Of a stretch of DNA of 56,296 nucleotides, positions 9,876 to 56,296 are shown piece by piece (the first letter of the stretch is position 1; each line of letters starts with the position of its first letter). The position numbers and the translations under genes are program-made. The notes under the pieces are model-generated. The model saw only the letters and a list, made by a program, of their open reading frames with translations. It was not told the origin of the DNA and ran no database searches. Source of the DNA: Nanobdellota archaeon (GTDB taxonomy: Archaea; Nanobdellota; Nanobdellia; Woesearchaeales; UBA9642); the NCBI GenBank assembly GCA_041305085.1, contig JBFYMA010000021.1:1-56296 (forward strand). The letters run 5' to 3'.

Positions 9876-10277
9876 TTAGTAGCAATAGCACAAAAGCTTT
9901 CCTCCAATTCCCTGCTGTTTGGCCTGGGTATGTGTGAGCAATCCTTTGTTTGTTGAAAGCAAAAGCAACCCCATATCTTTTGCAGGAAGGAACCTCTTTT
10001 CAAACTTTACAAAGTCCTGTTTTGTAACTGAAAACCTTGGCTTTACAACTCCTATCTTATTTATATTGCCAAGAAGGCTTATTTTCAGAAGCTTGTTTTT
10101 TCCATCCTCTATCTCTTCAAAGCTTCCAAGGTATTTGTTTTCCTGAAGCATTGACAATAGTTTTTTTATAAGCTTGGAGTTGTACCTAACCAAAACCTCT
10201 TTTTTTCCGTTTCTTTCGCTGTTCATTATGTTAGACAGGACCGCTGCCAGTGTATCATTCAAGCTCATTTTTTGCAC
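9876..10277 (-). CDS. rps8: 30S ribosomal protein uS8
   Basis: DTLAAVLSNIMNSERNGKKEV N-terminus and a GGKLLCYCY end. Confidence 0.93.
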   Translation of the reverse strand: MQKMSLNDTLAAVLSNIMNSERNGKKEVLVRYNSKLIKKLLSMLQENKYLGSFEEIEDGKNKLLKISLLGNINKIGVVKPRFSVTKQDFVKFEKRFLPAKDMGLLLLSTNKGLLTHTQAKQQGIGGKLLCYCY

Positions 10278-29452: not shown

Positions 29453-29553
29453 ATAACAAAAATTTGCCTGATTACTCATGGGCTCGCCCTATCCTCAACC
29501 CAAAAGCAAGGGATTCCTGCTTGGAATTTCTTCTTTCAGTAGAGCTTTTCAAT
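29453..29553 (+). repeat. Dispersed structured repeat, copy G
   Basis: It starts with ATAACAAAAATTTGCCTGATTACTC (compare copies C and E) and ends with TTGGAATTT..GCTTTTCAAT. Confidence 0.65.
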
Positions 29554-31050: not shown

Positions 31051-31645
31051 ATGACAAAGGTGTCTTATTTTTCCAGAGCATGCCCGGCAAACAAAAAAAT
31101 CAACACCCAGTATATTATCTTTCCGGCAGAGTCAGACAGGCAGAAGCTGAACAAAACAAACCTAAAAATACTAAAACTTTTGTCCAGTGATGCACGAATT
31201 CCTATAATAAAAATAGCCTCAGCGGCCAAAATAACAAAAATGCTGCTGCTCAGACTTATCCCAAACCTAAAGGTTAGGGTACAGAGCAACAGATGTTGCA
31301 GGTATCACTCTGTGATATTTCACCTTCGCTAATGGAAGGCACATTTTTGGAATTTAAAATTTAGGATACCAGTACTTCAAAGTGAACTTTCTGCTCAACA
31401 ATGTTGCAAAGGAAAAAGAAAAGCTTTTCAGAGGTTATATAAAATTCCATCCTAACATAATATACGACGACCAGGTGCTTGGAGGAGACGACTTTGAAAT
31501 AGAAGTACAGGCAAAAAATTCAGAGCAGCTGAGAGAAATTCTTCTGGATATAAAAAAAAGGTTCTCTTCAATAATCAAAAGCCAGTCAATAAGCCAATTC
31601 TACAAAGAGCACAAATACTTGTTTATGCTAGAAATAGAATATTAA
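31051..31645 (+). pseudogene. Lrp/AsnC-type regulator split by repeat copy B
   Basis: The N-terminal HTH piece is LNKTNLKILKLLSSDARIPIIKIASAAKITK. The C-terminal piece NLGYQYFKVNFLL..DFEIEVQAKNSEQL is in another frame. Stops are TAA 31330, TGA 31313 and TAA 31355. Confidence 0.6.
31231..31387 (+). repeat. Dispersed structured repeat, copy B (inside the split Lrp/AsnC gene)
   Basis: ATAACAAAAATGCTGCTGCTCAGACTTATCCCAAACCTAAAGGTTAGGGTA is near-identical to the start of copy D. It has the internal CCTTCGCTAATGGAAGG hairpin and a TTTTTGGAATTTAAAATT core. Confidence 0.75.
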
Positions 31646-32616: not shown

Positions 32617-32823
32617 ATAACAAAAATGCACCTGATTACTGATAGGTTCACCCTGTCCTCTACTTTTAGGTCGAGGTGTAGGGCAATCAAAGATTGCTGG
32701 CATCACTCTGTGATATTACTGACTCACAATCTTCTCAGGCGCATTATTGGAATTGAAAATTTCGACCTGAAGGTAGGTGTATTCAACCAATAAAAATTTC
32801 TCCTTTTAGTCAAAATTTTCAAT
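32617..32823 (+). repeat. Dispersed structured repeat, copy C (longest)
   Basis: It has the ATAACAAAAATGCACCTGATTACTG start, the GGCATCACTCTGTGATATTACTGACTCACAATCTT block shared with copy A, and a TTGGAATTGAAAATTT..GGTGTATTCAACC..AAAATTTTCAAT end shared with copy F. Confidence 0.75.
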
Positions 32824-32967: not shown

Positions 32968-33105
32968 ATAACAAAAATGCTGCTGCTCAGGCTTATCCCC
33001 AACCTCAAGGTAGGGGTATTGCGCCTTCGCTAATGAAAGGCGCAATATTGGAATTGAAAATTGCGCACTAAAACGAGGGGTATTCAACCCTGCACAATCT
33101 TCAAT
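32968..33105 (+). repeat. Dispersed structured repeat, copy D
   Basis: It has the ATAACAAAAATGCTGCTGCTCAGG start, a perfect 10-bp hairpin ATTGCGCCTT/AAGGCGCAAT, and the 3' module ATTGAAAATTGCGCA..GGGGTATTCAACCC..TGCACAATCTTCAAT. Confidence 0.75.
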
Positions 33106-41932: not shown

Positions 41933-42131
41933 ATTGAAAATTGAGAATTAAAGTGCTGGGTATTCACCCCTGTGCAATTTTCAATTCTAAGAGATGCCTG
42001 AGCATTTCTTGAACCGAAAATTTTCGATTTCCTTGTTCCAAAAATGCGCATTCCATAAGCAAATGAGCAATAATTCCTCCTTTAGGCAGGGACATGGTAA
42101 GCATATGATTACTCAGGCGAATTTTTGTTAT
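41933..42131 (-). repeat. Dispersed structured repeat, copy E (3' module loop inverted relative to 5' part)
   Basis: On the minus strand it starts ATAACAAAAATTCGCCTGAGTAATC. The module at 41933-41985 reads ATTGAAAATTGAGAATTAAAGTGCTGGGTATTCACCCCTGTGCAATTTTCAAT on the plus strand. Confidence 0.7.
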
Positions 42132-44594: not shown

Positions 44595-44745
44595 CGATTT
44601 TCAAAAATTTTTGTTATTGAAAATTTTGACTAAACAGAGAAATTTCTATGAGTTGAATACCTAGACATTTAGGCCTAGCAAAAATAATCGCCAAAGAAAT
44701 AGATAAGAACCTTCCGCTTACTGAGAGTGATTACTAAGTTTTTAA
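44595..44745 (-). repeat. Dispersed structured repeat, copy F, with a second 5'-boundary motif abutting its 3' end
   Basis: The minus strand reads ..CTAGGTATTCAACTCATAGAAATTTCTCTGTTTAGTCAAAATTTTCAAT, directly followed by AACAAAAAT (44607-44617). Its 3' half matches copy C. Confidence 0.65.
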
Positions 44746-48693: not shown

Positions 48694-48829
48694 TATTTCT
48701 CAATGTAATAAATTATGTGACTTTGTTTTTGTTATGCTTTCTCTTATAAGAAGGATTTTATTACACTGTTATCTATAAAAGATAATAAAATTCAAAAAAT
48801 ATAAATAAGATGTTTGCTAACTTAATTTT

Positions 48830-49081
48830 ATGCCCAGAAAAGAACTAGCAACAGGTGTGGCGCACAAAGTGCCTGCAGATTTGAAAAAAGCTCTGACTTC
48901 CTCCTCCAAAGTGCAGGAAGCATGGAACGGCCTCACTCCATTAGCACGTAATGAGTGGATATGCTGGGTTATATCTGTTAAGAGAAAGGAAACAAGAGAA
49001 AACCATATCGGGAGAGTATGCACAGAGCTTCTCGAAGGAAAGCGTAGGCCCTGTTGTTGGCCTGGCTGCCCCCATCGCTGA
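48830..49081 (+). CDS. OmdA/YdeI C-terminal domain protein
   Basis: VPADLKKAL.....V.EAWNGLTPLARNEWICWVISVKRKETRENHI, ending in CCWPGCPHR. Confidence 0.75.
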   Translation: MPRKELATGVAHKVPADLKKALTSSSKVQEAWNGLTPLARNEWICWVISVKRKETRENHIGRVCTELLEGKRRPCCWPGCPHR

Positions 49082-49345
49082 AATAATTGAGAAAAAATCT
49101 TTACTTTTTTGAGAACTCCTGCTTGCTTTATTATTATGCAGCAAGACCATCCCGAGGGGATACAAGAAAAGCTTTGCTTTTCTGGAAGGTATGCTCATTG
49201 CATTCATTACCCAACACCCTTTGTCTATTGAGCTATACTGTTTGATAGGCTTCGCCGGAAAAAGCGCTAACTACATTTTCAACGCAGCAGTTTTCCTTTC
49301 AAAATATTTATATATCCTGCGCAACTTAATGTTTTTATGGTCAAA

Positions 49346-49558
49346 CTAATCGCAATGGGTGGCGAGGAGAATTTGACTTTCTTGGGAGAATATGAAAAGA
49401 AAATCAGAGAATCCTCCTTGGATATTGTAATCCATTGCTTTTAGGTTGTGCTTGGCTTTTGTAATGTGTTCCTCTGAAAGCTTGTCGCTTGGCTTTATTT
49501 TGGTCATTCTTGATTTTTTTGCAAGACACCAGTCAAGCTTTTTCTTATGCATTGACAT
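49346..49558 (-). pseudogene. HEPN-domain antitoxin/toxin fragment (truncated)
   Basis: Only about 70 aa remain of an expected ~130. It overlaps the upstream NTase gene by 14 nt as MNT-HEPN pairs do. Downstream minus-strand frames hold HEPN-like debris (NECNEHTFQKSKAFL). Confidence 0.5.
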
Positions 49559-49817
49559 TTTTTATGACCTCCAAAAATACTGATTCTCCCTTCAATATTA
49601 CTCCTTCCTTAATCAGAGAAATTATGGCTTCTTTTCCTTGTTTAATCTCATCTATCAAGTCATCTTTTTTTAATATCAATGGCACAATTGGCTTTGTCCT
49701 GATCTTGGTGAGTTCAAGACAGAACTCTTTAACTTTCTTAGCCTGACTTGTAAGAAACAATACATCAACATCATTGAATGCTTTACTTTTTAAAACTGAG
49801 CCAAAAAGGATGATCAT
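49545..49817 (-). CDS. Minimal nucleotidyltransferase (MNT), possibly 5'-truncated
   Basis: ILFGSVLKSKAFNDVDVLFL (GS..x..DxD). The frame stays open and protein-like for 53 codons upstream of ATG 49817 without any ATG/GTG/TTG. Confidence 0.65.
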   Translation of the reverse strand: MIILFGSVLKSKAFNDVDVLFLTSQAKKVKEFCLELTKIRTKPIVPLILKKDDLIDEIKQGKEAIISLIKEGVILKGESVFLEVIKNVNA

Positions 49818-50210
49818 TTCTGCATGCTCAAATTTGGTAATCTCGTCAGCATATACTTTTGCATATCCTTTCAGTTCCCTTTTTTCTGCAAGGAGCAGCA
49901 GCTCACATATCTTGACAGCTTCGGGGTTGTTTAGGTTAAGTTTGTAGTGGCTTGCACCAGGGTATATCAGTCGAATGATCTTCTATGTAGAGCATGATTT
50001 AGCTGATGGGAGAAATCCTGGAATTAGAATGCTTCAAGTAAGAAGATGCTTAAATTCTGAGGATTATTACAGAGAGGTATTCAAAGGAGAAAATTGTGAA
50101 GAAGCCCAAAATTATCGTGCATTAGGTAAGAAATTGGATGAAGCATTAAAACTACTTGTGTAAGTTGTTAGCGCCGACCCTTTCTAGATATTAGCATTTT
50201 TTTCAATTGC

Positions 50211-50234
50211 AATTAACATCCGCGCTGTTATACG
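50211..50234 (+). repeat. Collapsed copy of the attC-like palindrome family
   Basis: AATTAACATCCGCGCTGTTATACG is the left-arm start and right-arm end of the 54562-54697 element with the centre missing. Confidence 0.5.
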
Positions 50235-50295
50235 TTTTTTCTGCAAGAAAAAATGCCGAAGCGAAGCGTAGGCACAGTATGACGCAGGGTAGCGA

Positions 50296-50982
50296 CTAAT
50301 CTAAAGACAACCTATAAACCACATATGTCCATTTATCAAAAGTTTCTTGCTTAACAACTTTTGAAGAAAAAATACTATTTGAGATTAATTGTTCTAAATA
50401 TTTTAGATCTCCTGATGAGGAGAATACAAGTAAAATTCTTCCATTTTCTTTGAGATAATTTTTTACTTCACTAAAAAATTTATTTAATGTTGAATAATTT
50501 TCATCTAATTCTCCTCTTTCTAAAATATCTCTTGGTTTAAACCATCTGAAAGGGGGATTAAAAATTATTAAATCAAATTTTTCTTCAATATTTGAGAATA
50601 AATCGCTTTCAAAAATTGTTATTGTATTTTCTAAATGATGGTGTTGAACATTCAATTTGGCACATTCTAATGCTACTGGGTTGATATCAACAGATATTAC
50701 TTCTGATGCTTTCTCAGCAGTAAATATCCCTTGAATTCCTGTACCAGTTCCTAAATCTAGAACTTTATCACCGTCTTTAGTTTCATCTTTTACGGCTTGA
50801 GCAAGAAACTTTGAATCTTCAAAAACTGGAGCAAATAATCCTGGTAAAACAATAATTTCTTTGCCAAGAACATTCACTATCTGTTTTTCTTTTATTGCTT
50901 TAAGTTTTTGATAAACTTCTATTTGCCAGATTCTTCTCTCTTCTATTTCTTTTTCTGAGAGTAACGGTTTATAGGTTGTCAT
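50296..50982 (-). CDS. HemK/PrmC-like methyltransferase (NPPF motif)
   Basis: VLDLGTGTGIQGIF (motif I) and DLIIFNPPF (motif IV). Confidence 0.85.
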   Translation of the reverse strand: MTTYKPLLSEKEIEERRIWQIEVYQKLKAIKEKQIVNVLGKEIIVLPGLFAPVFEDSKFLAQAVKDETKDGDKVLDLGTGTGIQGIFTAEKASEVISVDINPVALECAKLNVQHHHLENTITIFESDLFSNIEEKFDLIIFNPPFRWFKPRDILERGELDENYSTLNKFFSEVKNYLKENGRILLVFSSSGDLKYLEQLISNSIFSSKVVKQETFDKWTYVVYRLSLD

Positions 50983-51039
50983 AATATCAAATAAAATAAG
51001 GTATTATATAAAATTGTCGCCACCCGAGTAATATTGCAC

Positions 51040-51136
51040 ATAACATCAGGGATATACAAAGTTTTTCTGGAACGAAGTGGAAGAAAAATTTGGGAGAGGG
51101 ACGAGCCGAGCCCGAACTGTATATCCTTTGTTATAC
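51040..51136 (+). repeat. Imperfect palindromic element E1 (attC-like architecture)
   Basis: The left arm ATAACA-tcag-GGATATACA pairs with the right arm TGTATATCC-tt-TGTTAT(AC). The centre carries GGAACGAAGTGGAAG. Confidence 0.65.
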
Positions 51137-51229
51137 GTCCCGACGACTGAAAGGAGGAGAGCGTAGAAGTCGGGCATGAAGCCAAAAAACACAGAAACAC
51201 CCTAATTTCTTGTCAGTATGCCCGATTGT

Positions 51230-51370
51230 ATTTAACATCGCGATTAACCGAAGTGCTGAGTTGAGCTGGCTCAGGCAGCCCTGAGACACGAGCTGAAAAT
51301 TTTATTTGGATGGAACGAAGCGAAGCTACGAAGTGGCGAGCGAAGTGTAGTTGGTTAAGCCCTGTTAAAT
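51230..51370 (+). repeat. Imperfect palindromic element E2 (attC-like architecture)
   Basis: The left arm ATTTAACA-tcgcga-TTAACC pairs with the right arm GGTTAA-gccc-TGTTAAAT. The centre carries GGAACGAAGCGAAG. Confidence 0.65.
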
Positions 51371-51515
51371 CCTTCCGACTACGAAGTGGGAGGAATTGCG
51401 AAGCAAAGTCGGAAAAGAGAGCGTTCCTTCAAATGAGCGAAGCGACACATCAAGAACAAGAATTGAGGGGGACATTTTGTAGTCGTCGTTTATGTTAGTT
51501 GTTAGGGGGCGGGCG

Positions 51516-52499
51516 TTATTTACTAAGTTTAAGCAAATTCTTAAATCCTGGAGTCCACTCATCCGTTATCATCAACACAGAATCTACAGTCCTTATCACA
51601 AAAGGGAATTCTTTTTTTAGATTTTCAATTATTTCATAATATTCTTGATAACTGCTTACAACTATTTCCGGTTCTATCTGCCATATATTTCTGATGTAGT
51701 AATGGATATTTGGTATATTAGACAAATATGTCAGAAATTTTGATTCATCTTCTTTGGTGTATTTGTCTAGTTTGATTATTGCCTTATACAGTTCTAATCC
51801 GATCACATTAAGATTGATTCCTATTCTATACTGGATAATTATGCCTTTCTGCTCTAATTTCTTTAGTTTGCCCCTTACAATTATTGCTGTTGAATTGACT
51901 TTTTTTGCAAGCTCGTTTATTGGCATTCTTGCATTGTTTACTATCTCTCCTAAAATAGAATAATCTAGTTCGTCCAATTCGTTGTTGACTACCTCTCCTG
52001 CAAACATCGTTGGAGGTACAATCTCATTTGTAAAATACATTTTTGCGTATTGTTTTACATCTATCAAGCTATCTCCATATTCTTGAGTGATTATTCTTTG
52101 GAAGTTTGACAATATCTCATTTTTAAGTTTGTAAAATTCGTAGTCATTTCTTGAAAAAACTCCAAAAATCAGATCCCATGAACCAGAACACTCTCCCATC
52201 CAATAGACAATTCCTGCTGATTTCAGATAATTGAATAATTTTTGTTTCTCTTCAGGGATATTTCTAAGTTTGAGATAAATCTTGTATATTTTGTATCCCA
52301 TCTTATGCGGATTAAAAGAAGCATTAAAGCTTGTTATCACTCCTCTTTTTTCTAATTGACTGATTCTATATTCTACAGCTTGTCTTGATTTCATGACTTT
52401 TTTAGCTAAGACTGTGGTGGGAATTCGACAGTTTTTATCTAGTTCTGCAAGTATCTTTCTGTCTGTTTTATCTAGCTTAATCTTGGTTATTTCTATCAT
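51516..52499 (-). CDS. Tandem (double) Lrp/AsnC-type transcriptional regulator
   Basis: Two HTH units (LDKTDRKILAELDKNCRIPTTVLAKKV..; LDELDYSILGEIVNNARMPINELAKKV..), each followed by an Lrp-like ligand domain. Confidence 0.85.
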   Translation of the reverse strand: MIEITKIKLDKTDRKILAELDKNCRIPTTVLAKKVMKSRQAVEYRISQLEKRGVITSFNASFNPHKMGYKIYKIYLKLRNIPEEKQKLFNYLKSAGIVYWMGECSGSWDLIFGVFSRNDYEFYKLKNEILSNFQRIITQEYGDSLIDVKQYAKMYFTNEIVPPTMFAGEVVNNELDELDYSILGEIVNNARMPINELAKKVNSTAIIVRGKLKKLEQKGIIIQYRIGINLNVIGLELYKAIIKLDKYTKEDESKFLTYLSNIPNIHYYIRNIWQIEPEIVVSSYQEYYEIIENLKKEFPFVIRTVDSVLMITDEWTPGFKNLLKLSK

Positions 52500-52616
52500 T
52501 TATTAGCATATATAATAATAAATATATAAATTTTATCATTTATGCTTAAAAAATAGTAAATACTTTGATATATTTGATTATATCTACTAAGTAGTAACAA
52601 TAATGAGGTAATCAAA

Positions 52617-53792
52617 ATGACAAATATAAGTGTTCAAAATGGAAGAAAAAAGCTTGAGGAAAGGATTGAGAGAGCAATCCAAGAATCGGGAGTAAAATTA
52701 CCTGAAGGCCCACATGAGAATTACATACAAGGTTGGTGGTTTGAGGATGAAAAAATTAGAGAAGCTAATAAAAAAGGAAACTTACTTACTTTAGATCTTG
52801 ACATCGGAAACTACTGTGATTTAGCTTGTAGTTTCTGTTTTTCAAACACACAAAGTCCAGATCATGATTCTTATGTGACTAAAACAACTGAAAGAATCAA
52901 AAATATTATTGATGAAGCAGTTGAACTAGGTCTAAAAACAATAAAGATTGTTGGAGCTGGAGAGCCTTTCTTGTTTAAAAATCTGATCAACATAATAGAA
53001 TATGCACAAGAAAAAGGCGTTCAGTCTGTTGTTTTTACAGGTGGTCATGTAATCGGAGATGATAATTATGCCCGAAAGGTCTATGGGCATGAAGGAATTA
53101 CATCTGGAGCGGATTTAGCTAGAAGATTGAAAGATGCAGGAGCTTCAGTAATTGTCAAGTACCTCACCTTTGATGATAAACTCCATACTAGGATGGTTAA
53201 TCCAAAGAGAGAAGGATATGATTATACAAGAATGAGAGATAAAGGTCTTATGAATTTGATAACAGCAGGATTGAATGCAGAAGAAGAATCAAGATTAGGC
53301 GTAGATTGCTTAATGATGAGGGAAAATTATAAAGAAGCTGTAGAATTGTTCAGTTTCTTTATCAAATACAATATTTTTGGAGTGTTCAACACAAGCATGG
53401 ATTGTGGTAATACACAAATGGATCTTAAAAATCCATCTGTATTAAGCAAAGATGAAGCATTAGGGGTTGCAACAGCATTATACAAATACTGTATTGAGCA
53501 TGATATACCTTTTGATAAAAGAATCTCTCCATACTTTTGCAGTAGAGTTTGCTCTCAATTGAATCATGGTATGTTTGTTGGAGATAACGGAGAAGTAAAA
53601 GCATGCCCCGGGGGTCCAAAAATTGGAACTTACCAAAAAGGAAACTTAAGAGAGATATGGGAAAACAACCCAGTCAGAGTTAAATATAATTGTGTAGTTG
53701 GACATGAATGCATCTCAAGATGTGGAAAAACTTATCATGCAGATTTTGAGCAAAAAGTCAAAAAACAGTTAGAATGTGGTTCAAGTGAGTAA
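52617..53792 (+). CDS. Radical SAM protein with C-terminal Cys-rich (SPASM/twitch-like) domain
   Basis: CDLACSFCF (CxxxCxxC), a GAGEPFL glycine motif, and C-terminal cysteines C..VCSQ...GEVKACPG...C....ECISRCG. Confidence 0.85.
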   Translation: MTNISVQNGRKKLEERIERAIQESGVKLPEGPHENYIQGWWFEDEKIREANKKGNLLTLDLDIGNYCDLACSFCFSNTQSPDHDSYVTKTTERIKNIIDEAVELGLKTIKIVGAGEPFLFKNLINIIEYAQEKGVQSVVFTGGHVIGDDNYARKVYGHEGITSGADLARRLKDAGASVIVKYLTFDDKLHTRMVNPKREGYDYTRMRDKGLMNLITAGLNAEEESRLGVDCLMMRENYKEAVELFSFFIKYNIFGVFNTSMDCGNTQMDLKNPSVLSKDEALGVATALYKYCIEHDIPFDKRISPYFCSRVCSQLNHGMFVGDNGEVKACPGGPKIGTYQKGNLREIWENNPVRVKYNCVVGHECISRCGKTYHADFEQKVKKQLECGSSE

Positions 53793-53858
53793 TGCAGAGA
53801 TATGAGCGGTTGATTAAAAACTAATTTTTTCTTTTTTTATTTATTACGAGGTGAAAAA

Positions 53859-54518
53859 ATGACTGTAAAAAAAATATTTTGGGAAAACCCCTATTTGAAA
53901 GAGTTTAAGGCAAAAGTAATTAGTGTTAGTGGAGATATGATAACTTTAGATAAAACAATCTTCTATGCCTTTACAGGAGGGCAATCTTCTGATTTAGGAA
54001 CAATTGGCGGTTTTGATGTCATAGAAGCTAAAAAATATGGAAATGAAATTTTGTATGCGCTTAAAGATCATACATTAAATGCAGGAGATAATGTAATAAT
54101 TAAAATTGATTGGGAAAAAAGATATAAGATAATGAAACTCCATTTTGCTGCAGAGATAATATTGGAATTAGTCTATCAGAACTTCAGTAGGCCTGAAAAA
54201 ATAGGGGCAAACATCACTTCTGAAAAAGCAAGACTTGATTTTATATGGAATGGAAACATATCCGAAATATTTCCAGAATTAATCAATAAAGCGGCCGAAA
54301 TAATAAATGCAGACTTGCATATAAAAAGTGAATTCAGTGACGAAAAGAACGAAAGAAGATACTGGCAGATAGACAGCTTTGCTAAGGTAGATTGTGGTGG
54401 CACTCACATCAAGAAAACAAGAGAGATAGGAGAGATTTCACTAAAAAGAAAAAGTTTAGGCAGCGGAAAAGAAAGGATTGAGATATACCTCACGCCCCAC
54501 CATAGTTTCTTCGTTTAG
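53859..54518 (+). CDS. AlaX-like alanyl-tRNA synthetase editing-domain protein (variant zinc motif)
   Basis: TIFYAFTGGQSSDLGTI N-domain, MKLHFAAEII in place of HxxxH, and VDCGGTHIKKTREIG (CxxxH). Confidence 0.75.
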   Translation: MTVKKIFWENPYLKEFKAKVISVSGDMITLDKTIFYAFTGGQSSDLGTIGGFDVIEAKKYGNEILYALKDHTLNAGDNVIIKIDWEKRYKIMKLHFAAEIILELVYQNFSRPEKIGANITSEKARLDFIWNGNISEIFPELINKAAEIINADLHIKSEFSDEKNERRYWQIDSFAKVDCGGTHIKKTREIGEISLKRKSLGSGKERIEIYLTPHHSFFV

Positions 54519-54561
54519 AAATATCCCCCCTTCCGTTTCGTTAGCTCTCTTTTCCGATTGT

Positions 54562-54697
54562 ATTTAACATCGCGATTAAGAGAAGTAAATCCGAAGGATT
54601 TATTTCCCCGAACTTTTCCTCGCGAATGAAATGAGCAGAGCTGAAAAGTGAGGGCGTAGCGTAGTGCAACGGAGCGGAGTTTTAATCGCTGTTATAT
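54562..54697 (+). repeat. Imperfect palindromic element E3 (attC-like architecture)
   Basis: The left arm ATTTAACA-tc-GCGATTAA pairs with the right arm TTAATCGC-TGTTATAT. The 26 nt at 54554-54579 are identical to 51222-51247. Confidence 0.65.
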
Positions 54698-54866
54698 TCT
54701 CCCGATAGGGATTGAGTTTTAGTGCAACGTCCCGAAGGGAAAACTCAAAGTCGTCGTGTGTATAGTTTTCTCGGGAGGTTGCCGCCGCCTTTTTTGTTTC
54801 TTTTTTTCTAAAAAAGAAAATAATATTTGGGGGGGGGAAGTGCCTGTTATAGAAAGTTATTTATAC

Positions 54867-54885
54867 TAAAACCTCATATTTAAGG
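54867..54885 (+). promoter_or_regulatory. 19-nt palindromic motif TAAAACCTCATATTTAAGG, copy 1
   Basis: It repeats with 1 mismatch at 55540-55558. The core inverted repeat is CCTCA-TATT-TGAGG in copy 2; here the downstream arm reads TAAGG. Confidence 0.35.
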
Positions 54886-54888
54886 TAT

Positions 54889-55542
54889 GTGTGGATTGCC
54901 AGAATAAAAATCAAGCATGATTGTGTGATTGGAAACAGATGTGAGAAATTTGGAGTTACTACAACCGGAACGCCATTTAATGTTTTCGTAGAAAAAGGGG
55001 TAACTCATTCTCCACAAGTTCAGACTTTACAGGGTGACGAAAAAAATATTAAGGATTTTATTGATGATATAAAGAAAGATAAAAGAATTACTCATCTTGA
55101 AGTTGAAGGGAATACTATATTTTTTATTGAAATTAGGAAAGAAAAAATACCTGCAACATTTCATCATATAAAACTTATATTTGTAAAACCTGTTTTTGTG
55201 GATAAACAGGGTTATGAATATTGGGAAGTTTCTTCTTGGAAAAAGTCAATACTGACTGATTTTATAGCGAATATGGAGAAGGAAGTTGGAAAGGTTGACG
55301 TTCTTAAGATTGAAGAAACTAAACTGACAGATATTTATTTTGCTCATCTTCTTCCAAAATTGACTTCTAATCAAAAGAGGGCTATTGAATTGGCGTTTGA
55401 AAATGGGTTTTATGCTTGGCCTAAAAGAACAGATCTGGGTGAATTGGCTAATATAATGAAAGTATCTGTTCCAACATATAGAGAGCATTTGAAAAGAGCA
55501 GAAGAAAAATTAATGCCTGATTTGATTAAATCTATTAAGTAA
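54889..55542 (+). CDS. HTH_10 (bacterio-opsin-activator-type HTH) family regulator
   Basis: The C-terminal LTSNQKRAIELAFENGFYAWPKRTDLGELANIMKVSVPTYREHLKRAEEKL matches the HTH_10 pattern. The start is GTG. Confidence 0.8.
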   Translation: MWIARIKIKHDCVIGNRCEKFGVTTTGTPFNVFVEKGVTHSPQVQTLQGDEKNIKDFIDDIKKDKRITHLEVEGNTIFFIEIRKEKIPATFHHIKLIFVKPVFVDKQGYEYWEVSSWKKSILTDFIANMEKEVGKVDVLKIEETKLTDIYFAHLLPKLTSNQKRAIELAFENGFYAWPKRTDLGELANIMKVSVPTYREHLKRAEEKLMPDLIKSIK

Positions 55543-55558
55543 AACCTCATATTTGAGG
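55540..55558 (+). promoter_or_regulatory. 19-nt palindromic motif TAAAACCTCATATTTGAGG, copy 2
   Basis: It overlaps the stop codon of the HTH_10 gene and lies about 40-50 nt upstream of the flavin reductase start. Confidence 0.35.
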
Positions 55559-55596
55559 GCAAAATTAAATATACTTATTCTATAAACTACTTCATA

Positions 55597-56124
55597 GTGA
55601 TTAAAATGCAAATAACAAAACCTGAAAATATGAAAATAGGAGTTGTGCCAGGACCAAAGTTTGTAACACTTGTATCCTATGGCACTATGGAAAATCCTGA
55701 TATTGTTACTGTAAGTTATGTAGGTCAAATTACTGATAGATTGATGTATGTTTCTTTAAGACCATCAAGACATAGTAATCAAATTTTAAGAAGTAGTGGG
55801 CGATTTGCTATTAACTATATTGGATCAGATTTGGTAAAAAAAGCTGACTTCTGTGGGATTTATTCAGGAAGAGACACTGATAAATTCAAAGAAAGTGGAT
55901 TGAATTTAGATTTTGATCAAGAAATACCAATGATTTCTGAATCTCCTCTTAGTTTAGAATGTGTATTAAAAAACATAACTAGAATTGGAGAGCATGATGT
56001 TTTCTTTGGAGAAGTCAATAAAGCCATTAGAAGAAAGGAAGAATCTAGCTGGCTTTATCACGATAATTTTGAGTATTTTGGAAATGGTCATCAACTAGGG
56101 GGTTTATTTCAAATAGGAAAATGA
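55597..56124 (+). CDS. Flavin reductase-like (FMN-binding split-barrel) protein
   Basis: Its size and the VSL.PSRHS...I...G.F.IN / HD.FFGEV patterns are typical of the flavin reductase-like domain. ATG 55606 is an alternative start. Confidence 0.65.
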   Translation: MIKMQITKPENMKIGVVPGPKFVTLVSYGTMENPDIVTVSYVGQITDRLMYVSLRPSRHSNQILRSSGRFAINYIGSDLVKKADFCGIYSGRDTDKFKESGLNLDFDQEIPMISESPLSLECVLKNITRIGEHDVFFGEVNKAIRRKEESSWLYHDNFEYFGNGHQLGGLFQIGK

Positions 56125-56296
56125 CAAGTGTAGAAGAGATTATAAGAAAATTTGGAACGCCTCTTTATGTTTATGAGGAAGATAGAATTAGTGATAACTA
56201 TAAATTGATTGATGGTTCAATTCCATACCAAAATAAAGAAATCCATTATGCTGTTATGTGCAACAGCAACAGAGTGATTCTTAAAATAATCAGAGG
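56121..56296 (+). CDS. PLP-dependent Orn/DAP/Arg decarboxylase family protein (N-terminal fragment, runs off window)
   Basis: Hand translation gives MTSVEEIIRKFGTPLYVYEEDRISDNYKLI....IHYAVMCNSN, which matches the FGTPLYVY...Y..L....I.YA.K.N N-terminus of group IV decarboxylases. Its ATGA start overlaps the upstream stop. Confidence 0.7.
   Translation, partial: MTSVEEIIRKFGTPLYVYEEDRISDNYKLIDGSIPYQNKEIHYAVMCNSNRVILKIIR

Follow-up and report, generated by a model that had tools for sequence, protein, structure and literature searches.

An integron-like gene-cassette array in a woesearchaeal genome, probably served by a XerA-type recombinase

Integrons are the textbook platform for gene capture and are defined by the integrase IntI together with attC sites. 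The pdif modules of Acinetobacter plasmids, which hold one to a few genes facing either way, have Xer-like sites at their borders and turn up in different contexts; these pdif sites, 28 bp long, are plain XerC/XerD sites whose orientation alternates. Here, we analyze 56,296 nt of DNA (contig JBFYMA010000021.1 of assembly GCA_041305085.1, hereafter the window) from a Nanobdellota archaeon of the Woesearchaeales, the last 6 kb of which carry four copies (E0, E1, E2 and E3) of a folded intergenic element between unrelated gene modules. An original prediction, made from the letters of this DNA alone, had read these elements as attC-like and the region as a possible integron cassette array with no integrase in view. 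We consider it likely that the region belongs to a gene-cassette array on the chromosome, of which it is the distal part and which runs past the right window edge, that arrays of this kind are widespread in Woesearchaeota and Pacearchaeota (DPANN), where a terminal half-site and usually a co-oriented gene for a XerA-type recombinase stand at the 3' end, and that XerA or a close paralogue is the catalyst.

Several described systems invite comparison. Integrative mobile elements exploiting Xer (IMEX) make use of Xer at dif, as in CTX-phi, in which a folded single strand forms the site, and single xer/dif modules are represented by XerS-difSL and by some archaeal xerA/dif modules (PMC5357621). 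In the rAID-1 clusters of Bacteroidales, a gene for a XerD-family recombinase ends an array of accessory genes whose repetitive intergenic sequences have been called 'reminiscent of integrons' (bioRxiv 10.1101/471110). Surveys based on IntI and attC place integrons in about 1% of archaeal genomes (75/6,718), and the archaeal integrons of Ghaly et al., some of them in Nanoarchaeota, have canonical attC sites and IntI, with nine archaeal attCs listed as recombined by IntI1 (PMC9668308).

A family of folded junction elements

The elements of the window are given here with their scores under R1, a covariance model of the family with which 42 copies were found in the loci collected first.

50206..50236, plus strand: E0, collapsed junction element (from sequence; R1 with filters off, 21 bits, E = 0.005)
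51033..51139, plus strand: E1, full junction element (R1 77.5 bits; alignment of copies)
51225..51373, plus strand: E2, full junction element (R1 68.7 bits)
54557..54700, plus strand: E3, full junction element of the long-interior type (R1 54.2-54.4 bits)

These four are co-oriented copies of a single structured element. E0, the distal, 5'-most array site within the window, consists of the left arm ATTGCAATTAACATC, a loop of 7 nt and the right arm TGTTATAC. In E1, ATAACA-tcag-GGATATACA (51041-51058) pairs with TGTATATCC-tt-TGTTAT (51118-51134), and the P2 helix is altered throughout with its pairing retained (GGGATATACA / TGTATATCC). E2 is built from the left arm ATTGTATTTAACATC, a P2 of TTAACC/GGTTAA and the right arm TGTTAAATCC, and it pairs ATTTAACA..TTAACC (51230-51249) with GGTTAA-gccc-TGTTAAAT (51353-51370). 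E3, the architecture of which closely resembles that of a copy in another locus (L001 7219-7350), pairs ATTTAACA-tc-GCGATTAA (54562-54579) with TTAATCGC-TGTTATAT (54682-54697). The collapsed copy and all of the pairings claimed for E1 to E3 in the original prediction can be read in the sequence as written there, and the 26-nt identity that it gave between 51222-51247 and 54554-54579 is exact; the repeat extends to 33 nt (51222-51254 / 54554-54586) at 94%, and a match was obtained in 0/100 shuffles. Nothing significant beyond this 33-nt repeat came from a sensitive self-BLAST of the gaps against the window. Computed GC likewise agrees with the description of GC-richer gaps in a stretch that is AT-richer from about 50 kb: the gaps lie at 0.42-0.50 vs 0.22-0.37 in the flanking genes, and 50-56 kb is somewhat AT-richer than the remaining window. 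The elements are thus real, but the size first assigned to them was too small, as conserved hairpin modules continue past each one. For example, the AGTGCAACG module follows, after E3 there is also a terminator-like palindrome (54793-54822), and the module after E0 (50235-50290, TTTTTCTGCAAGAAAAAA ... CAGTATGACGCAGGG) is the one found after copies in L022, L001 and L008.

Scanned with R1, the window yields E0-E3 only, all in the last 6 kb of 56 kb, and zero copies in the first 50 kb. Weak repeat matches had hinted at a minus-strand copy near 49.0 kb; R1 with filters off found none there. Rfam 15 at gathering score gave no match in the whole window, and a scan of the window for tRNA and tmRNA genes found none.

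Beyond the window, an exact 18-mer of the family (ATTTAACATCGCGATTAA) occurs in 28 species-representative genomes, approximately 21 of which are metagenome-assembled genomes (MAGs) of Woese-, Pace- or Nanoarchaeota, and one exact 21-mer occurs in at least 120 metagenome contigs. In total, R1 finds at least 271 copies in at least 133 loci of Woese-/Pacearchaeota genomes and metagenomes (the collected loci, numbered L001 and so on). The 18-mer is also present in L005, which is labelled a Methanocellales MAG, and in L030, a giant-virus bin that gave the one match in a scan of viral contigs; both are probably mis-binned DPANN contigs. A single-copy RNA gene (RNase P, SRP RNA) as the source of the 18-mer was ruled out by the several co-oriented copies per locus, and a fixed position of the element relative to gene ends was rejected too, as the flanks follow no rule.

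The copies share one plan: a left arm ATTG-n-A-y-w-TAACA-TC, a P2 helix (GCGATTAAGAG ... CTCTTAATCGC) and a right arm that begins TGTTA (TG-TTAwrtnc). P2 is an 11-bp helix closing a three-way junction of variable hairpins; inside it come, in order, AAGT, the variable hairpin H1, ATTTGGGTGGAG, the hairpin H2 and CGGAAC, and past the right arm stands the AGTGCAACG hairpin module or the CAGTATGACGCAGGG variant, often with a T-rich palindrome. Covariation supports the fold, which is particular to the strand reading ATTG..TAACATC...TGTTA. In the 42-copy alignment, 94.7% of cells are paired, both sides change in 12/20 pairs, 0/500 shuffles do equally well and slid registers reach 31-51%; G.T wobbles number 72 vs 4 A.C mismatches, and the ATTG...TGTTA strand is more stable than its complement in 40/42 copies (p = 3e-8), with DNA and RNA parameters alike. 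Additionally, the short sub-hairpins TTTTGAGGCAACCCACAAAA, CCTCGAAAAAATTCTCCTCGTGAAACAGAGCTGAGAATTTTTTCAGAG and GAGCTGAAAA recur within otherwise unrelated copies, as though mini-hairpins insert into loops; they lie in H1 of many copies, e.g. in L001, L004, L005 and L047, in L013, L015, L016 and L023, and at window positions 51290-51300 and 54637-54647.

Cassette borders and the recombinase at the array end

Adjacent copies are co-oriented in 137/138 cases across the collected loci. The sole orientation switch is in L089 (1501-1647 on the minus strand, 1798-1905 on the plus strand), where the distal ends of two arrays face each other head to head. From start to start, neighbouring copies are a median of 926 nt apart (interquartile range 720-1320), and exactly one open reading frame (ORF) of at least 60 aa is present in 92/122 intervals, with no ORF in 6/122. 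Arrays comprise up to about 7-9 cassettes per collected locus and end sharply; L080, for example, has seven copies in 4.7 kb and then none over 10 kb. The original observation that genes between the sites are not co-oriented holds in the relatives as well, since in single-ORF intervals 39 ORFs run in the same direction as the element and 53 in the opposite one, and the linkers carry TATA-like and T-run motifs.

What, then, marks a cassette at either end? All of 251 copies have AAC and GTT unchanged, with AACA/TGTT as the invariant core, and the informative bases lie outside it. Between the left and right flanks of the same element, 2.09/4 bases pair and 8% of cases are perfect, whereas between the right flank of element i and the left flank of element i+1, i.e. 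the two ends of one cassette, 3.17/4 bases pair and 59% are perfect. Same-locus controls give 2.0/4 (9% perfect) and random pairs 1.98/4 (7% perfect), the difference between cassette ends and random pairs having p = 2.7e-28, and only positions 5-9, counted outward from the core, carry the signal. In other words, the outer arm bases pair across the cassette and not within the element, and resident elements are therefore hybrids. It follows that a cassette excised as a circle would restore a whole site with an outer stem of ~10 bp, and the complementarity of the 5-nt outer flanks indicates circular intermediates closed at a fixed point.

Related loci can also be compared directly. The window and L089 have 944 nt in common at 87.7% identity, a block that starts exactly in the right arm of E3, with unrelated sequence upstream. 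L032 and L059 have a methyltransferase cassette in common at 81%, from TGTTATACGAG to GTATAAC(A/G)T, and differ in P2 and the interior of both flanking elements. In L047 and L102, homology over a phosphatase cassette (88%) begins at TGTTATGTGT and ends directly after AAC(A/G)T. The blocks of all three pairs thus break at TGTTA, and those of L032/L059 and L047/L102 at AAC(A/G)T as well. Taken together, the co-oriented array, the cassette-end pairing and these breakpoints at TGTTA / AACAT uphold the idea that the elements delimit gene modules as cassettes. A separate kind of change is seen at the flavin reductase gene (window 55597-56124; L089 3909-3964), which is a clean one-gene indel between the window and the 88%-identical L089, where the decarboxylase comes directly after the HTH_10 gene; because no junction element borders it, genes also come and go within a cassette by another route.

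When 839 ORFs from the collected loci, flanks included, were clustered into families, the second-largest cluster was a tyrosine recombinase (PF00589 + PF13495) with 11 members in 11 loci. In 10/11 loci, its gene lies downstream of the 3'-most element, co-oriented and 128-5255 nt away. The proteins are 258-286 aa long, match NF040815 at 201-239 bits (cutoff 220) and have Pyrococcus abyssi XerA as their best PDB match (4A8E, 4e-33). Against the IntI model TIGR02249, they reach 168-220 bits (cutoff 265), and since these recombinases lack the IntI-specific segment, the match falls into two stretches, with roughly model positions 168-240 passed over. In the L101 protein, the catalytic residues R, K, H-x-x-R, H and Y can be made out, and with thousands of 267-aa homologues at 70-85% identity, the recombinase looks like the ordinary XerA of the lineage. 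In the reverse approach, we started from the xerA protein and inspected long contigs for elements; arrays were present only upstream in 2/3 testable contigs, a further contig (L151) beginning at xerA. On the 284-kb contig L154, six co-oriented elements precede xerA and none follows in 10 kb downstream, and on L153 (181 kb), three lie upstream and none downstream. Along the folding strand, the order of array, terminal site and xerA is the geometry of attC arrays, attI and intI. The original remark that no integrase is in the window stands, then, while in relatives an integrase-type gene does end such arrays, and it is XerA-type, not IntI. L154 is also unusual in that a complete inverted junction element (9878-10006, minus strand) abuts the xerA start codon, replacing the simple terminal site of other lineages.

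That terminal site, directly upstream of xerA, has a variable left arm, ATTG.A..TAACAT, followed by a conserved 13-bp palindrome, AAGATTATCAATA-N6/7-TATTGATAATCTT; other lineages have a different palindrome. Its pairing was counted on 7 cleanly parsed loci. In five (L101, L153, L089, L058 and L074), the terminal left arm is complementary to the start of the last cassette at 10/10 positions, and in the sixth, L115, at 9/10; the arm of L102 pairs 10/10, one of these a G.T wobble, with a cassette start that was assigned by eye. Cassettes with a matched terminal site include lengths of 2.2-5.2 kb. The last cassette before xerA in L058 (3253-9381) is a 5.2-kb type III restriction-modification system (Res + Mod) with perfect 10-nt inverted ends, TGTTAAATGA ... 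TCATTTAACA, from which we see that cassettes can be whole defence operons. In L089, the closest relative of the window, the counterpart of the window's last cassette (cassette D below) ends in GAATATAACA, the perfect complement of its start TGTTATATTC, which is identical in the window, and is joined to the terminal site directly after the decarboxylase. For this reason, a terminal site is predicted just beyond the right window edge, about 1.1-1.3 kb on and directly behind the decarboxylase stop codon; it would read GAATATAACAT joined to the palindrome AAGATTA(C/T)CAATA-N6/7-TATTGATAATCT, and a XerA-type gene for 267 aa would be expected close by.

In part, both site types recall dif. The left-arm logo (n=251) is A.93 T.94 T.93 G.64 n A y w T A A, then CATC, and its three outermost bases are conserved though unpaired. 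The P. abyssi dif that XerA recombines is ATTGGATATAA-TCGGCC-TTATATCTAAA (PMC2958812); the family left arm ATTGnAywTAA fits ATTGGATATAA at every specified position, and cassette starts such as TTATATTC resemble the right arm. The element's own right arm pairs over only about 8 nt, and its central region has 6 nt (CATC^TG) only with the hairpin looped out. At best, the terminal site is 11-7-11, with 7-8/11 symmetric positions on manual reading. A scan of 230 kb for a plain 11-N(5-8)-11 dif found none. Some single-recombinase systems and some archaea keep dif beside the xer gene (PMC5357621).

Within the window, the order is E0, methyltransferase, E1, an empty interval, E2, Lrp + radical SAM (S-adenosylmethionine) + AlaX, E3, and HTH_10 + flavin reductase + decarboxylase, as follows.

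50231..51045, no strand: cassette A, MTS-type SAM methyltransferase with linkers (Pfam PF05175, 1e-23)
50296-50982, minus strand: MTS methyltransferase (Pfam)
51019-51032: 3'-end module ...CCCGAGTAAT, also in L006, L001 (5685), L047 (1465) and L102 (686)
51140..51224, no strand: cassette B, an 85-nt gene-less interval with the hairpin CCCGAC...GTCGGG as its sole content
51368..54569, no strand: cassette C, Lrp/AsnC + radical SAM + AlaX-like (Pfam; end sequences)
51516-52499, minus strand: double-HTH Lrp/AsnC regulator (Pfam)
52617-53792, plus strand: radical SAM enzyme (Pfam)
53859-54518, plus strand: AlaX-like protein (Pfam)
54695..56296, no strand: cassette D, cut by the window edge (87.7% identity to L089 3033-3975)
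54889-55542, plus strand: HTH_10 (Pfam)
55597-56124, plus strand: flavin reductase (Pfam)
56121 onwards: Orn/DAP/Arg decarboxylase, start only (Pfam on the L089 counterpart)
1-114, 29453-29553, 31231-31387, 32617-32823, 32968-33105, 41933-42131 and 44595-44745, both strands: ATAACAAAAAT...TTTTCAAT repeats

Pfam agrees with the three gene modules first proposed, with the methyltransferase, then called HemK-like, as MTS type and the decarboxylase named via L089. Cassette C starts with TGTTAAATCC and finishes with GTATTTAACA, 9/10 complementary, and cassette D runs from TGTTATATTC through a AGTGCAACG hairpin module (54716-54758) and the terminator-like palindrome already mentioned to its three genes. 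Cassette A, with its poorly matched end sequences, may be rearranged or decayed, and cassette B is probably a remnant. A subset of cassettes ends alike in ...CCCGAGTAAT directly before ATTG despite unrelated genes, which makes this a conserved 3'-end module. Over the ~1.5 kb before the array (48694-50163), there is no intact long ORF; the stretch holds a sub-threshold Polbeta nucleotidyltransferase fragment (49545-49817, minus strand) and short frames, and it looks like decayed genes at the distal array edge. The MNT member of the decayed MNT/HEPN pair that had been placed here is this sub-threshold match only. No integrase is present at 40-49 kb. The different repeat family, found on both strands in gaps of the first 45 kb, also begins ATAACA and has no R1 match.

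Almost no proteins are common to the arrays of different genomes. The largest ORF cluster, class I SAM methyltransferases, has 22 members in 21 loci (flanks included), and Lrp-type proteins recur in 6 loci and radical SAM proteins in 4. Defence cargo comprises an NgoPII-type restriction-modification operon, a DpnII restriction-modification operon and a type III restriction-modification pair; other cargo includes ParE, GNAT, a metallo-beta-lactamase-fold protein, a pentapeptide-repeat protein and cupins, along with many SAM methyltransferases, a low-molecular-weight phosphatase, Lrp-type regulators and radical SAM enzymes. Genes for IS200-type Y1 transposases are found within or beside arrays in 4/133 loci (L015 2699-3130, L043 510-998, L097 207-668 and L132 10069-10572), and their position relative to the elements is not fixed.

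Weighing the explanations

How might such an array work? On the explanation that we consider likely, XerA or a close paralogue would insert circular cassettes at the terminal site and would excise cassettes between junctions. Cuts would fall at the borders of a dif-like core, the 6-nt central region of which (CATC^TG) would be interrupted by the hairpin, and the hairpin would have to fold, in single-stranded DNA or a cruciform, before a junction becomes a substrate. The terminal site would be the docking site, perhaps dif itself. Two strand exchanges would flank the hairpin, which would explain why the interior goes with neither neighbour in L032/L059. A bolder version, which we offer tentatively and rate as slightly less probable than its opposite, is that the elements may be dif sites with a hairpin-split central region, the housekeeping XerA doubling as cassette integrase and the terminal site serving as both chromosome dif and docking site; junctions would then be silent as duplex and active once one strand folds.

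A number of observations weigh against a XerA-served array. Catalysis by XerA is deduced from position and site likeness, and neither a recombinase nor a terminal site lies inside the 56,296-nt window. What follows the terminal site in L089, over the 400 nt left on the contig, is an unknown ORF on the minus strand and no xerA; nor does the terminal site amount to a clean 11-6-11 dif. L014 has the opposite array/xerA geometry, and at the L152 xerA locus no element is detectable with R1. Cassettes A and B of the window have poorly matched ends, and the interior in L032/L059 accompanies neither flank. A few of the metagenome loci duplicate one another, coming from the same genome, and the attC comparison that follows uses a proxy model.

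Could the window instead hold a fragment of a canonical integron, a cluster of attC sites lacking an integrase (CALIN), with true attC sites and IntI encoded elsewhere? The AAC...GTT ends speak for this, as do the co-oriented array with cassette-like spacing, cassette-end pairing that follows the attC R''/R' logic, and the published archaeal integrons, some in Nanoarchaeota (PMC9668308). The RYYYAAC / GTTRRRY boxes are present in part: the AAC/GTT triplets never vary, and the outer four bases fit R/Y in some copies only. We built a proxy attC model, R2, from the arms of nine validated archaeal attCs (Data S9, PMC9668308), using arms only because RNAalifold on a MAFFT alignment of the full attCs recovered only the R box. 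As a positive control, R2 finds attC_aadA1 of In2 in plasmid R100 (47.2 bits, E = 1e-10) as the sole match in 50 kb; yet on the 42 family copies in 182 kb, it gives no match, which is an outcome that the original prediction had named as refuting it, R2 being a proxy for IntegronFinder's own model. When folded, the nine archaeal attCs show an R box of 7 bp and an internal loop, and their bottom strand, which folds better, is bulged by single bases on its 3' arm, whereas the sole regular bulge of the family (TC, 2 nt) is on the 5' arm of the folding strand, so that folding strand and bulge arm cannot both match attC; the unpaired central spacer and single-base-bulge pattern of attC are not seen in the family. 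An attC-like fold with conserved extrahelical bases is therefore not what the elements have, as the opposite strand folds better (40/42) and the bulge is on the other arm. Cassette ORFs are neither co-oriented with the sites (39 same vs 53 opposite) nor, given TATA-like motifs in the linkers, evidently promoterless; the array-linked recombinase lacks the IntI-specific segment; and six MAG accession prefixes checked, out of the ~21 DPANN MAGs matched, are absent from the supplements of Ghaly et al. Thus, the part of the attC-like claim that survives is that hybrid junctions, with cassette-end pairing of 3.17/4 vs 1.98-2.09 in controls, delimit cassettes; identity with attC and membership among integrons do not, and we regard a CALIN as extremely improbable.

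The other alternatives dispense with a dedicated site-specific recombinase. Selfish hairpins akin to repetitive extragenic palindromes (REP), miniature inverted-repeat transposable elements (MITE) or palindrome-associated transposable elements (PATE) could have been copied by a HUH Y1 transposase, their co-orientation stemming from the replication strand and the genes between them not being mobile units. Modularly nested sub-hairpins, the Y1 genes in 4 loci and a strand-specific fold suited to a single-strand mechanism fit this view, part of which the original prediction had also raised; however, the Y1 genes have no fixed position, the copies are clustered (0 in the first 50 kb of the window), and the view leaves unexplained the outer-arm pairing across cassettes, a terminal arm complementary to a cassette start up to 5 kb off, the stop of arrays at xerA with fixed geometry, and the same gene block in different contexts with breaks at TGTTA/AACAT. 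We find it unlikely, and about equally unlikely that the elements are primarily RNA elements (stable 3'-UTR structures, terminators or insulators, or small RNA genes) with a secondary DNA arrangement. G.U is tolerated on one strand only and one G.U pair is invariant, the motifs ATTTGGGTGGAG and AGTGCAACG are conserved and unpaired, T-rich terminator-like palindromes close several linkers, and the elements are GC-rich in an AT-rich genome, all as RNA would have it. Against this, element orientation is unrelated to the flanking genes, and about half of the elements would therefore be antisense to any read-through transcript; no Rfam match was obtained, and cassette-end complementarity, the xerA link and the breakpoints are not predicted. 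An RNA role of the interior could coexist with a recombination role. Ordinary homologous recombination between repeated linkers, with xerA nearby by coincidence in a variable region, could draw on the identical stretches of 20-30 nt that linkers share, but breakpoints fall at the same two positions beside the AACA/TGTT core and are not spread along the conserved arms, the 5-nt complementary outer flanks imply circles joined at a fixed point, the terminal half-site with its constant right part looks like a docking site, and the xerA geometry is fixed in 10/11 loci; we judge this explanation very improbable.

Comparison with described gene-capture systems

The tiny genomes of DPANN archaea are otherwise thought to change mainly by loss, and the cargo of these arrays is restriction-modification, toxin-antitoxin, methyltransferases and small metabolic operons. 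The cassette-array reading explains the GC-rich gaps of the window and its unrelated gene modules side by side. If XerA is the catalyst, the enzyme that resolves chromosome dimers also captures genes, the idea that integrons arose from Xer can be put to the test, and a simple, defined system for biochemistry (a small enzyme, a docking site and a foldable site) is at hand. Should the sites be split dif sites, these arrays could be a main gene-gain route in genome-reduced DPANN archaea. We found no description in the literature of Xer-linked cassette arrays in archaea or of archaeal IMEX.

Compared with IMEX and Xer/dif modules, the arrays have in common a housekeeping-type Xer as the likely catalyst, an arm resembling a dif arm and a putative docking site beside the xer gene; as with IMEX, co-oriented tandem arrays would result from repeated insertion at one site, and a folded single strand may present the site. 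Unlike IMEX, the units here are cassettes of one to three genes without phage or plasmid functions, the central region of the sites is split by a structured insert of roughly 60-150 nt, and multi-cassette arrays are the rule. The rAID-1 clusters also have a Xer-family gene at the end of an accessory-gene array, but they are bacterial, with co-directional genes and immunity-gene cargo, and there is no known relation between the sites. In contrast to those of pdif modules, the sites here are co-oriented, hairpin-split, chromosomal and beside xerA. With REP/REPIN-RAYT and PATE elements, the family shares GC-rich intergenic hairpins, a strand-specific fold and a nested modular structure, and it differs in having no consistent HUH partner, in its clustered arrays beside xerA and in its pairing across cassettes.

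The closest likeness is to integrons. Both have co-oriented, folded palindromic sites between short accessory-gene cassettes, hybrid resident sites with outer bases paired across the cassette, a gene for a tyrosine recombinase at one array end together with a simpler docking site (here putative), and a cargo rich in restriction-modification, toxin-antitoxin, methyltransferases and GNATs; moreover, the array xerA runs in the direction of the folding strand, just as intI runs in that of the attC bottom strand. The arrays depart from integrons in that their sites fail the attC model and have an interior and left arm strongly conserved across species, their cassette genes face either way with promoter- and terminator-like linkers of their own, and they are accompanied by a recombinase of XerA type, about 267 aa long, in which the IntI additional domain is absent. 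Because a plain XerA-type recombinase and a different folded site are used, surveys based on IntI and attC miss these arrays. The array appears to work like a bacterial integron, yet its sites are not attC and in relatives it ends beside XerA, a set-up apparently undescribed. If the split-dif proposal holds, integron-type capture would here rest directly on Xer/dif, and the system would be either convergent with integrons or a surviving likeness of the Xer-like ancestor that gave rise to them.

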